NCBI GenBank assembly: GCA_045616645.1
Contig: JAZLHD010000179.1
Coordinates: 5,633-69,632, forward strand
DNA from: Paludibacteraceae bacterium
GTDB taxonomy: Bacteria; Bacteroidota; Bacteroidia; Bacteroidales; Paludibacteraceae
Direction of reading: 5' to 3'
DNA: 64,000 nucleotides
Both the position numbers and the translations under genes were made by a program. The first letter of the stretch is position 1, and each line of letters opens with the position of its first letter. Of the stretch, positions 1,344-3,351 are shown piece after piece. The notes under the pieces are model-generated. The model was not told where the DNA came from. It did no database searches and was given only the letters and a program-made list of their open reading frames with translations.

Positions 1344-3351
1344 AGTTTATCATTTGTAAAAACTCATCTTCAGAGACGAGTGCTATTCCTAATTGTTCTG
1401 CTTTCTTGCGTTTCTCGGGACCCATATTCTCACCGGCAAGGATAAACGAAGTCTTGCCGCTGACGGAACCGCTGTTCTTTCCTCCATGGGCTTCGATGAT
1501 ATCCTTATATTCCTCGCGCGAATGGTGTTCAAACGTACCCGAGATAACGATGGTCTTACCGGCGAGTTGAGTTCCGGAATTTCCGGAAGTTCCGGAGTTT
1601 CCGGTAAGGGTCACGCCTGCTTCTTGTAAGCGATGAACGATATCAAGGTTGCGGATGTCATTGAAATAAGCGATGATGTTCTCGGCTATCTGGTCGCCTA
1701 CATCCTCTATGGCGGTGAGTTGCTCTTTCGTTGCCCATTGCAGCAGGTCAATAGAGGGGAAGACATGGGCAATCTTCTTGGCAGTGGTCTCTCCCACCAT
1801 CCGTATTCCAAGGGCAAAGAGAACACGAGCCCAAGGCACTTGTTTGGACTTCTCTATACCTGCTAAGATATTATCCGCAGACTTATTACCTAATCGCTCT
1901 TGCTTTGCCAAGTCCTCGTGCGTGAGATGGTAGATGTCGGCAACCGAGTGGAGTAAACCTTGTTCAAAGAGTAGGTCGATAGTCTCCTCTCCTAAGCCGT
2001 CAATGTTCATTGCCTTACGGCTAACGAAGTGCTCTATTTTTCCTTTGATTTGCGGAGGACAGGTGATGTCGTTCGGACAACGCCAAGCCGCTTCGCCTTC
2101 CACACGGACAAGCGGTGTGCCACATTCGGGGCAAGCCTTGATAAAGTTTAGAGTTGAGAGTTTAGAGTTTGGAGAATTAGTGACTTTGCCGATGATCTTA
2201 GGGATGATCTCGCCCCCTTTCTCCACCCACACTTGGTCGCCTTCTTCGATGCCGAGTTGGCGAATAAAGTCCTCGTTATGTAAGGTGGCGCGTTGTACGA
2301 CGGTGCCACTGAGTTGTATCGGGTCGAGGTTAGCTACAGGAGTGATAACCCCCGTTCTGCCCACTTGATACGTTATCTTGCGTAAGGTCGTTTGCTGTCG
2401 TTCGGCAGCGAACTTATAGGCTATTGCCCATCGTGGAGTCTTAGCGGTATAACCTAACTCCTCTTGTTGGGCTATGTTATTGACTTTGAGAACGACACCA
2501 TCGGTGGCGACGGGTAAGTTCTTGCGCTCGATATCCCAATAATTGATGAACGCCATCACCTCGTCTATACCGTGACAGACACGGATAGCATCACTGATAG
2601 GGAAACCCCATTGTTTGGCTATCTGCAATCGGTCAAAGTGGTTGTTTTCGGGAAGGCGATCCCCTAACATATAATATAAATAGGTGGTTAGTCCTCTGCG
2701 AGCCACCTCGCGTGGATCTTGCAGCTTGAGGGTACCACTGGCGGCATTACGCGGATTGGCAAAGAGAGGCTCCTCTTGTGCCTCGCGCTCCTGATTGAGT
2801 TTCTCGAAGTTCGCCCAAGGAAGTAATACTTCGCCTCTAAGCTCGATGGAAGCCTTATTATCTATTGTCCAGGGGATATTCGCAATCGTCTTGATGTTTT
2901 CTATTACATCGTCGCCTTGGGTACCATCTCCGCGAGTGACGGCGTGGGTGAGTTGTCCGTTCTCGTACCAAAGAGAGATACTGAGGCCATCGTATTTGAG
3001 TTCGCAGCAAATCTCGGCATCGGAAGGCATTTTGCTCAGCCAATCAACCACCTCTTCACGGCTATACGTGTTCGCAAGTGAGAGCATCGGGTAGCGATGG
3101 GTGATGGTGACAAAACCCGATTTCTTCGATAGGTCACTTCCCACATGTTTGGTTGGACTCTTAGGGTCGTCCATGTCCGGATAGCGTTTCTCAAGGTCTT
3201 GCAGACGGTGCATCTTCTCATCGAACTCGCGGTCGGACATAGTGGGAGCATTGAGAACATAATACTTGTAGTTCTGATCCTCTAACTCTTTGCGCAAGGC
3301 GAGAATCTCGTCCCGTTCAGGGGTCTCTATTTCAGAAAATAAATCCATCAT
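1327..3351 (-). CDS. ligA: NAD-dependent DNA ligase
   Basis: 674-aa ORF with the adenylation motif ELKYDGLS, the Zn finger [28 protein letters not shown], an HhH region and a C-terminal BRCT-like segment ([10 protein letters not shown]...[15 protein letters not shown]). Confidence 0.97.

Follow-up and report, generated by a model that had tools for sequence, protein, structure and literature searches.

The 64,000-nucleotide stretch of Paludibacteraceae DNA analyzed here (GenBank assembly GCA_045616645.1, contig JAZLHD010000179.1, positions 5,633 to 69,632; hereafter the window) carries tandem arrays of CTCTAAA-type heptamers in ligA, in the genes for PreA and an AddB-like protein, in dapA, and in one intergenic region. 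The best explanation is that these arrays belong to a lineage-wide population of short tandem arrays, with units mostly of 7 or 8 bases and one strand poor in G, in a clade of gut Paludibacteraceae and in other gut and rumen Bacteroidales. We find it fairly probable that slippage plus copying from locus to locus explains the arrays, with selection then retaining open frames and unstructured RNA. Inspection of the sequence located heptamer arrays at all five places named in an initial annotation of the window, and the elements are microsatellite-like, as stated there, and not palindromic. The same annotation spoke of a real repeat family lying in frame in essential and housekeeping genes; this holds, except that CTCTAAA is only one of several families with units of 7, 8 or 9 bases.

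The bare word CTCTAAA is not enriched, occurring 14 times in the window against an expectation of 8.9 ± 2.9 (7 of 100 shuffles reach 14). Tandem runs of at least three CT[CT]T[ACT][ACT]A units number six in the window and zero in 200 dinucleotide-preserving shuffles. Tandem Repeats Finder (TRF) reports 24 arrays with a score of at least 40, compared with about one in shuffled sequence, and 13 arrays with a period of 7 or 8, compared with none in 60 shuffles. With periods of 7, 8 and 9 and copy numbers of 2.6–9.4, these arrays show both the head-to-tail repetition of 5–11-nt units and the excess over compositional expectation that characterize long simple sequence repeats (LSSR). The unit families in the window are CTCTNNA, GCCTNTCN octamers (seven sites), AATCACM, CAATAAT, TCAACTT, CTAAACNN, TCCTTTG and two in-frame 9-mers, and array density in relatives is 0.41–0.74 per kb. 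The first 35 kb, with housekeeping genes and the division and cell wall (dcw) cluster, contains all 13 of the period-7/8 arrays (p = 4e-4); TRF found none in the polysaccharide-utilisation region at 34.4–52.4 kb or further along the 64-kb window. An Rfam scan of the full window at gathering thresholds matched no family. The arrays are listed here by window position.

251–300, minus strand: composite heptamer array in a DapA loop, CTTTCAA CTATTAA followed by the spacer ACTAGACGGCTT and then CTCTACA CTCTAAA; it breaks dapA.
557–574, minus strand: short heptamer array in dapA, AACAATC × 2.6, encoding INNQQS; the orthologous site in the relative L003 is (CAATCAG) × 4.6.
837–886, minus strand: octamer array CTAAACNN, six copies, filling the gap between the DUF6913 stop codon and the dapA ATG.
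1572–1604, minus strand: in-frame 9-base array TTCCGGAAN in the LigA linker between the helix-hairpin-helix (HhH) and BRCT domains, 12 residues, different in every relative.
2145–2174, minus strand: CTCTAAA-family heptamers in LigA, in the linker that joins the OB fold to the zinc finger.
11173–11211, plus strand: heptamer array AATAATC/CAATAAT, stopping 3 nt short of the ATG of a pyridoxal phosphate (PLP)-dependent decarboxylase gene.
12420–12449, plus strand: heptamer array CAATAAT (× 2.6), stopping 6 nt short of the preA ATG (12455).
12701–12732, plus strand: CTCTAAA-family array in the PreA linker.
14344–14376, plus strand: in-frame 9-base array CTAAACCNG in an Exo_endo_phos_3-like gene, encoding KPSKLAKPAKPAKQ; a related array is present in L126.
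15671–15710, plus strand: heptamer array AATCACM in a loop of RibF/FAD synthetase, encoding TNHKSQITNHQ; the same loop in L126 has a different array, NPPNTKHQTPNTRHQTPDT.
16126–16218, plus strand: two arrays at the N terminus of a C10 peptidase, (AAATCAC) × 8.3 right after the ATG and then (TCCTTTG) × 3.4, which codes for the hydrophobic core of the signal peptide.
18726–18768, plus strand: octamer-family array CCTNTCNG in the C10 peptidase, directly ahead of its conserved C-terminal domain.
19290–19325, minus strand: octamer array AGCCTNTC in a loop of the AddB-like protein (a PD-(D/E)XK nuclease), encoding PQPISLSASLP.
19722–19841, minus strand: octamer array abutting a CTCTAAA-family heptamer array in the central AddB-like loop; the heptamer part (19722–19784) encodes PLSTLNYKTTLNSTLSTLNS.
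20240–20275, minus strand: octamer array in a loop of the AddB-like protein; a 41-nt block here copies 19795–19835 with 95% identity (family D1).
28418–28448, minus strand: perfect heptamer array TCAACTT × 4.4, stopping 6 nt short of the mraY ATG.
32912–32950, plus strand: octamer array antisense to rsmH, encoding RLRGGEAERRKGK; the one clear orientation exception.
34107–34178, minus strand: composite array of CTCTAAA/CTCTACA units and the spacer ACTAGACGGCTA, in intergenic DNA about 500 nt upstream of mraZ.
57166–57222, plus strand: weak octamer array GNNAGGCN upstream of a 1759-aa open reading frame (ORF) (family D1).
62657–62713, plus strand: weak octamer array with the G-rich strand as sense, ahead of the C-terminal domain of the 1759-aa protein (family D1).

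Comparison with relatives (fetched loci carry L numbers) shows that the contents of these sites turn over much faster than the genes around them. The nucleotide identity of ligA to the window is 89% in L139 and L001, 81% in L002, L137 and L138, and 76–78% in L003 and L126; the AddB-like ortholog in L124 is 79% identical. Over 13.2 kb, the window and L139 are 85.4% identical, and nearly all indels of at least 4 nt fall at arrays. One such case is LigA (gene at 1327–3351, minus strand), in which Pfam domain order places the 2145–2174 array directly ahead of CPECG, the start of the zinc finger. Its coding strand reads ACTAATT CTCCAAA CTCTAAA CTCTCAA CTCTAAA CTTTATC in the window, whereas L001 has ATTCATC/ATTCCATC units at this linker, L139 has TCAGCCGAAGGCGG-type repeats, and L003 and L126 have a different, non-repeat insert. 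The L001 and L139 ligA genes are 96.8% identical, and 97–98% identical in the 300 nt on each side of the linker, yet the linkers themselves are wholly unrelated. At the protein level, one cluster at 90% identity carries the LigA linkers TETIHHSINPSFHF, NPSAEGGLSAQRSFSF and SPTAQRPFDF together with the window-type 13-residue one, and a second such cluster carries four others. Within 90% clusters, at least four unrelated linker alleles occur for LigA and at least three for PreA. One of the relatives is a metagenome-assembled genome (MAG) from horse faeces, and the window itself comes from a MAG of horse-gut type.

Other sites behave in the same manner. The DapA loop holds the CTCTAAA composite in the window, CTTTAAA units in frame in L003 (NFKLSTLNFKLK) and CCCTACTC octamers in L139. 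The dapA leader consists of octamers in the window, CTCTAAA in L002, CAATMAG/AATCACM in L003, and almost nothing in L001 and L139. Other unit families occupy the leader of the PLP-dependent decarboxylase gene in L003 and L139, and the ribF leader of L126 displays a presence/absence polymorphism exactly at the stop/start junction. Most of these differences are replacements of one whole family by another, with few clean 7-nt steps; dapA in the window is off by one unit. Distant homologs of PreA (at most 67% identity) and of the AddB-like protein (at most 45%) have ordinary, non-repetitive sequence of similar length at the array sites, indicating that the repeats replaced ancestral loop sequence in this clade. 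The initial annotation had read the LigA cassette as the replacement of a variable linker rather than a net insertion, and this reading is borne out by the PreA linker and the middle AddB-like loop, which have about the same length as in distant homologs. The LigA linker is nonetheless variable, with 18–54 residues (median 24) in 120 homologs, and the 20 residues of the window are near the minimum.

Two irregular spacer modules, AAACTAGACGGCTTCT (spacer i) and CTAGCCCARAGGGCGTC (spacer ii), recur within arrays of unrelated genes and genomes. Within the window, dapA 256–300 and the region upstream of mraZ (34130–34174) share a 45-nt composite that is 89% identical and has an irregular 12-nt core, ACTAGACGGCT[T/A]. 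Spacer (i), AAAC[T/G]AGACG[G/A]CTTCT, always sits between CTNTNAA units. It occurs at both of these window sites, in the L124 AddB-like gene, in the L137 LigA linker and in L043 (another Bacteroidales MAG), where it lies in a leader just before the ATG. In L124, the composite of heptamers and spacer (i) takes the AddB-like site that octamers occupy in the window (20240–20275). Spacer (i) is also present in eight metagenome contigs of the Joint Genome Institute (JGI), one of which has two copies within a single array, while a search of viral contigs for the composite gave no matches and thus no sign of a phage source. Spacer (ii) has a 4-bp mini-hairpin, is read as LAQRAS, and is found in the L124 AddB-like, L125 PreA and L138 LigA genes. 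In addition, blocks of 41 and 52 nt preserve the order of variant units at separate window sites (families D1 and D4). The recurrence of irregular modules in unrelated genes and genomes argues that arrays are copied between loci and do not grow by local slippage alone. Some do appear to be of local origin: the CAATAAT array of the preA leader corresponds to a native stop/start overlap, CAATAATG, which is all that L139 has there, and it looks like a local tandem duplication. Likewise, the L003 dapA leader expands CAATAAGCAATC, which is present in L001 and L139.

Small hairpin strings of the form TTTAGCCC-N3-4-GGGC(G/T) recur by the SFSPSGLN motif of the AddB-like protein (window 19700–19722), in spacer (ii) and in the L001 dapA tandem unit FNSSFSPLGRFNSSFSPSGR; one repeat family may have originated from a segment of a native gene. 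Spacer (i) is complementary to 16S rRNA near position 1492 (ACGACTT), which we judged to be a chance match of 7 nt, in a segment that is base-paired within helix 44. The likeness of TTTAGAG to the plant telomere unit TTTAGGG was likewise dismissed as coincidence.

The effect of a 7-nt array inside an essential gene can be seen in dapA (window 1–837, minus strand). The product is normally essential for the synthesis of diaminopimelate (DAP) and lysine, and the gene is intact in L003 and L139, where it encodes 295–296 aa. The window copy has a loop region 1 nt longer than that of L003; its first 192 codons end at CTC-TAA (259–261), and the remainder continues in the +1 frame. A full DapA ORF to the window edge is restored by removing one heptamer, either CTCTACA at 265–271 or CTCTAAA at 258–264, or any single base within 261–281, and the restored loop reads ...IKLDGFSKLKIFSGDD. 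The initial annotation had dapA terminated by a consensus unit in phase 1; the stop at CTC-TAA is indeed there, but the gene is more precisely described as frameshifted, with its C-terminal part in the +1 frame. This copy, one repeat unit or one base out of frame, may represent an allele made by slippage, a pseudogene or an error in the consensus. We rejected programmed +1 frameshifting at CTC-TAA-A by reasoning, in that the leucine tRNA in the P site cannot re-pair in the +1 frame and Bacteroidia ribosomes make no use of the Shine-Dalgarno stimulator. The split dapA shows the cost of 7-nt arrays in essential genes, which is the opposite of avoidance. Four independent Logan contigs (L001, L002, L137 and L138) have their 3′ ends inside arrays at the dapA loop that carries the 557–574 array in the window, as expected for sequence that is repeated elsewhere in the genome.

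We tabulated reading phase for 33 arrays inside open frames of at least 450 nt, drawn from the window and all fetched relative loci by a four-unit pattern, which makes for a biased sample. Among the units of these coding arrays, TAA-containing ones account for 0 of 46 in phase 1, 9 of 48 in phase 2 and 11 of 52 in phase 3, compared with 74 of 208 (36%) in other arrays. The in-frame copies in the window do carry a TAA-free unit in phase 1, as had been claimed (CTCTCAA in ligA, CTCTCCA in PreA and both in the AddB-like gene). However, the further claim of a special, reading-phase-dependent stop avoidance does not survive. Because 7 and 3 are coprime, three pure CTCTAAA units put TAA in every frame, and an open frame therefore needs a variant in phase 1; the zero in phase 1 is circular, since coding arrays were defined by their open frame. 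Much of the stop avoidance is in fact independent of phase: 23 of the 33 coding arrays have no TAA unit in any phase, and any TAA unit is found in 10 of 33 coding arrays versus 29 of 49 others (Fisher p = 0.013), a difference that comes from arrays consisting entirely of CTCTCAA or CTCTCCA. Nor are variant units a coding adaptation, given that non-coding arrays are as heterogeneous as coding ones; in the intergenic array at 34107–34146, CTCTACA alternates with CTCTAAA. Spacer (i) offers a parallel. It keeps TAG where it is non-coding or read AAA-CTA-GAC (KLDGF in the window dapA, KLDDF in L128) and has GAG in both genes with the frame AAC-NAG-ACG (NETTS in L124, NETAS in L137). The phase-1 variants, the stop-free arrays and the TAG-to-GAG change in the spacer are as expected from purifying selection on survivors.

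Two kinds of site in the window carry arrays, namely junctions between a stop codon and the next start, and variable loops or linkers of proteins. At the junctions, arrays stop 0–6 nt before the ATG (0 for dapA, 3 for the PLP-dependent decarboxylase gene, and 6 for both preA and mraY). The protein sites comprise two each in LigA and DapA, one each in PreA, RibF and RsmH, three loops of the AddB-like protein, and the N terminus, signal peptide and pre-C-terminal segment of the C10 peptidase. The sense strand is the G-poor strand in 13 of 14 arrays of period 7 or 8 (p = 0.002) and in 10 of 10 assignable heptamer arrays of the window, and in 19 cases versus 2 at four relatives' loci. Since the orientation flips with gene direction within one window, it follows transcription or coding rather than the replication strand. 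The predicted minimum free energy of folding from −45 to +15 averages −1.5 kcal/mol in six array-bearing leaders and −5.9 kcal/mol in 34 other genes (Mann–Whitney p = 0.005). In Bacteroidetes, which initiate without Shine-Dalgarno pairing, mRNA structure and the nucleotides upstream tune initiation (PMC6847099). These data hint that sense-strand G-poor arrays might be tolerated or favoured at the leader position.

The mechanism that we propose combines these elements. Arrays would be born and resized by slipped-strand mispairing, some of them growing from native junction sequence, and would be copied or overwritten from other arrays in the genome, likely by ectopic gene conversion or template switching between dispersed arrays. 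Such copying would yield mosaic, swappable cassettes. Within genes, selection would retain those that keep the frame open and encode a tolerable, mostly polar peptide (LSTLNSK-type); a slip of one unit would shift the frame, as in the window's dapA. Leader arrays that are G-poor and rich in A, C and U would give unstructured mRNA just upstream of the start, which may favour initiation without Shine-Dalgarno pairing.

Several points weigh against this proposal. All steps of the mechanism are inferred and none was directly observed, and the comparison material amounts to about 70 kb from close relatives plus the 64-kb window rather than a whole-genome census. The LNSKLST-type and TIH-type LigA linker alleles each occur in two separate 90% clusters, a pattern that fits trans-lineage polymorphism as well as repeated conversion, and allele replacement could partly be homologous recombination between strains with old polymorphisms. 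The exact composite, AAACTAGACGGCT plus two heptamers, has no match in JGI metagenomes; the spacer (i) composite was found there only when relaxed at two positions, which gave 10 matches, of which eight are true. Octamer arrays are found in both orientations, and the TAAATGG heptamers of L139 (up to 11.6 copies; 2138–2192, 14871–14954 and 15541–15604) keep a constant absolute strand at three leaders whatever the gene direction. Finally, the case for a role in leaders is weak and partly circular, because G-poor sequence cannot fold by construction and only six leaders are compared with 34.

Alternative explanations can be set against the same observations. A bolder one, which we consider doubtful, is that the arrays form a new class of non-palindromic mosaic repeat, made of units plus spacer modules such as AAACTAGACGRCTTCT, that is written into junctions and linkers by directed copy-and-replace; it would entail cassette switching at strain level in essential proteins such as LigA, DapA and RibF, and modular leaders free of structure for ribosomes that initiate without Shine-Dalgarno pairing. 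Purely local microsatellite dynamics, in which slippage occurs in place and shared units reflect mutational or compositional bias without transfer, seem to us quite unlikely. They would account for the arrays that clearly expand native junction sequence and for the CTCTNNA × 4 arrays in many unrelated phyla among the matches listed, and heptamers are the commonest long simple sequence repeat (SSR) class in many bacteria, for which polymerase slippage has been proposed (Mrazek 2007, as summarised in PMC4679880). However, spacer modules of 12–17 nt that cannot be derived from the units lie between heptamers in unrelated genes and genomes, variant units follow one another in the same order in blocks of 41–52 nt at separate loci, and whole linkers differ between genes that are 96.8% identical, which is too fast for mutation and within-array homogenisation.

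We regard as very unlikely a discrete mobile element, whether resembling miniature inverted-repeat transposable elements (MITE), Rickettsia palindromic elements (RPE), or the repetitive extragenic palindromic (REP) sequences and bacterial interspersed mosaic elements (BIME), whose dedicated transposase or nickase would insert preformed in-frame cassettes. The mosaic of units and conserved spacer common to genes, genomes and metagenomes is suggestive of one, as are the presence/absence polymorphism at exact stop/start junctions, for instance in the L126 ribF leader, and the breaking of Logan contigs inside arrays, as happens at dispersed repeats. Yet we saw no terminal inverted repeats, target-site duplications or defined ends, the 11 copies of the spacer (i) composite differ in unit number and kind on both sides with no duplicated flanks, and many unrelated unit families stand side by side. 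The 64-kb window contains no transposase gene or gene like the REP-associated tyrosine transposase (RAYT), and the viral contigs gave 0 matches.

Programmed phase variation, with on/off switching by 7-base slips as in contingency loci, is highly improbable. A change of one 7-base unit does shift the frame, dapA in the window is out by exactly one unit, and several arrays lie in or near genes for surface or secreted proteins (those for the C10 peptidase and the 1759-aa protein). However, most of the host genes serve housekeeping or essential functions (ligA, dapA, ribF, the dcw cluster), and for these an off state is lethal or useless, the variant units that interrupt coding arrays suppress slippage, and leader arrays are located outside ORFs. 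Linker drift of the ordinary kind, or selection on the protein for low-complexity peptides, without any repeat process in the DNA, strikes us as scarcely credible: the sites are variable linkers in all homologs, but the period is 7 or 8 nt and not 3, non-coding junctions contain the same units, the reading frame of one and the same DNA module changes from gene to gene (KLDGF versus NETAS), and distant homologs are without repeat structure. To an assembly or sequencing artefact we give next to no weight, as it could apply at most to the single dapA frameshift, where a consensus or indel error in the MAG source is conceivable, and is contradicted for the arrays themselves, which at 30–120 nt are shorter than reads, keep frames open in dozens of genes, and recur as alleles in many independent assemblies (nine contigs share the NDTIHIPQSTFHF allele).

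Set beside described repeats, the window arrays have known counterparts and also features of their own. Among long SSRs, the heptanucleotide class is the most frequent in many bacteria (Mrazek 2007), according to the summary in PMC4679880, and no Bacteroidetes figure among the ten genomes richest in 5–11-nt repeats that it lists. The window arrays resemble these heptanucleotide LSSR (Mrazek, Guo and Shah 2007, as covered in PMC4679880) in having head-to-tail 7-nt units, lengths beyond chance, a scattered and lineage-specific distribution and a proposed origin by slippage. They differ in that Mrazek noted a predominance of units with a length divisible by three in coding regions, whereas 7- and 8-nt arrays are common in ORFs of the window; further differences are the coexistence of several families, mosaics with conserved spacers, and the exchange of whole arrays between near-identical genes. 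TAACTGA repeats occur in Beggiatoaceae, cyanobacteria and five Bacteroidetes including Paludibacter propionicigenes (MacGregor 2015, PMC4679880). Like the window arrays, they have a forward orientation, end a few bases before starts and are interrupted by related 7-mers; there are also occasional copies in the stop-free orientation in variable surface loops of an essential-type, RpoC-like protein, and indels in 7-nt steps between strains (PMC4679880). Forward arrays that end a few nucleotides from a start are present in the window, and several in relatives. The units, by contrast, are others (CTCTAAA, AATCACM, CAATAAT, TCAACTT, CTAAACNN, GCCTNTCN and more, and not TAACTGA), copies inside ORFs turn up often, with the G-poor strand as sense and the stop removed by point variants, spacer modules recur at several loci, and replacement takes place at the strain level. 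Heptamer-derived satellites have been noted as well (PMC6749651).

The window arrays belong to the same kind as the heptamer LSSR, the TAACTGA repeats and the short tandemly repeated repetitive (STRR) sequences, to which the Bacteroidales form adds mosaic, swappable cassettes. STRR heptamers of cyanobacteria, reportedly described by Mazel and colleagues in 1990, are said to form several families per genome and to be tandem, mainly intergenic and lineage-specific. They resemble the window arrays in these respects but differ in phylum and units, and we know of no description for STRR of in-frame colonisation of housekeeping genes with cassette exchange. The initial annotation had drawn a parallel to RPE, which Ogata and colleagues reportedly described in 2000 as elements of 100–150 bp and fixed length lying in frame in essential genes, where an added peptide is tolerated. 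The parallel extends to the in-frame position in essential genes and no further (in-frame arrays of the window lie in the genes for LigA, PreA, the AddB-like protein, RibF and the C10 peptidase); instead of palindromes, the window has G-poor direct repeats of 18–120 nt with variable unit number, the array-bearing leaders fold with about 0 kcal/mol, and arrays also fill non-coding leaders. The REP/BIME of enterobacteria are imperfect palindromes that are strictly extragenic and linked to RAYT. They share with the window arrays a mosaic of a few short units plus conserved spacer motifs at many loci; in the arrays described here, however, the 4-bp hairpin of spacer (ii) is the only one, ORFs contain copies, and the 64-kb window showed no RAYT. 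Because they have no palindrome, defined ends or target duplication, the arrays are not RPE, MITE or REP/BIME. The SSR contingency loci of Haemophilus and Neisseria consist of homogeneous tracts in surface and virulence genes, where a unit change shifts the frame (PMC11868660). The dapA of the window, out of frame by one unit, is similar in this respect. The window tracts, however, are interrupted, lie for the most part in housekeeping genes and leaders, and are not classical contingency loci.

A scan for CTCTNNA × 4 with one genome per species returned at least 120 loci, with Planctomycetota, Acidobacteriota, Verrucomicrobiota, Clostridia and Cyanobacteria among the matches listed. Mixtures of AA, CA, AC and CC units like those of the window were, among these matches, chiefly a feature of Bacteroidales MAGs from gut and rumen (Prevotella, Paludibacteraceae, Bacteroidaceae and Candidatus Aphodosoma). 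Literature on heptanucleotide or heptamer repeats in Prevotella, Bacteroides and Bacteroidales, searched together with the literal repeat strings, yielded general papers only and no description. The initial annotation knew of no description in Bacteroidales; we too found none for these families, although general heptamer repeats have been described in other phyla and, briefly, in Bacteroidetes (PMC4679880). Specifically, we did not find described this set of families in Bacteroidales, the density of in-frame 7- and 8-nt arrays in housekeeping proteins, the shared spacer modules, or array replacement at about 97% identity.

If the density of 0.4–0.7 arrays per kb held genome-wide, each genome would have on the order of a thousand hypermutable arrays by extrapolation. 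These would account for most of the indel divergence among strains, alter the linkers of essential proteins as fast as strains diverge, and occupy the exact position for tuning initiation in a phylum without Shine-Dalgarno pairing. They would also break short-read (short-k) assemblies and could create frameshifted pseudogenes in MAGs, dapA being an example. The practical stakes lie in MAG quality control, in gene calling (spurious N-terminal extensions and split or truncated genes) and in strain typing, and the arrays offer a natural system for the study of tandem repeat birth, copying between loci and filtering by reading frame.

The array-poor region at 34425–52415 is a polysaccharide-utilisation-type locus with genes for an extracytoplasmic function (ECF) sigma factor, a FecR anti-sigma factor, a SusC-like TonB receptor, a SusD-like protein, a metallophosphatase, a major facilitator superfamily (MFS) transporter, a DUF4886 protein and a glycoside hydrolase of family 20 (GH20). 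The near-absence of 7- and 8-nt arrays there would fit DNA that was acquired more recently, with arrays yet to accumulate. Past this locus, at 52–58 kb, GC content falls to 37%.

Other repeated sequences were observed along the window. In both the C10 peptidase (18726–18849) and the 1759-aa protein (62657–62778), an octamer array directly precedes a C-terminal stretch of some 25 aa that is similar in the two (MKVLEHGQMLFLRAAKKYN... and MKVLRDGQFYIIRETKTYN..., respectively). The arrays are oppositely oriented, and the C-terminal stretch may be a secretion-sorting domain. A recurring motif of 40–60 nt (TTTGCATATAT ... TTGTAAnnTTTGCAG) is found upstream of genes at 4931–4990, 5948–5989, 6294–6353 and 33770–33829, with further copies at 50141–50200, 52425–52484, 54751–54810 and 55800–55841. 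It looks like the Bacteroidetes −33/−7 promoter consensus, with conservation that extends unusually far. Another conserved block, about 78 nt long (34321–34398, 55723–55747 and 57356–57433), contains AATCTGTGA/AATCAGTGT 9-mer repeats plus ATCTGTGAGAGATAAAAA and is located upstream of the ECF sigma factor gene (34425) and the 1759-aa ORF (57499); it may be a shared regulatory element. L003 also carries (ATCTGTGAA) × 2.9. The first 110 nt or so of the 1759-aa ORF (MKNEVNRAPWAK...; 57499–57640) have an 84%-identical duplicate at 63168–63277, and a 35-nt fragment of this start lies in the region upstream of mraZ (33832–33868). The string in it that codes for NRAPWG follows a repeat array in the metagenome contig L135 too.

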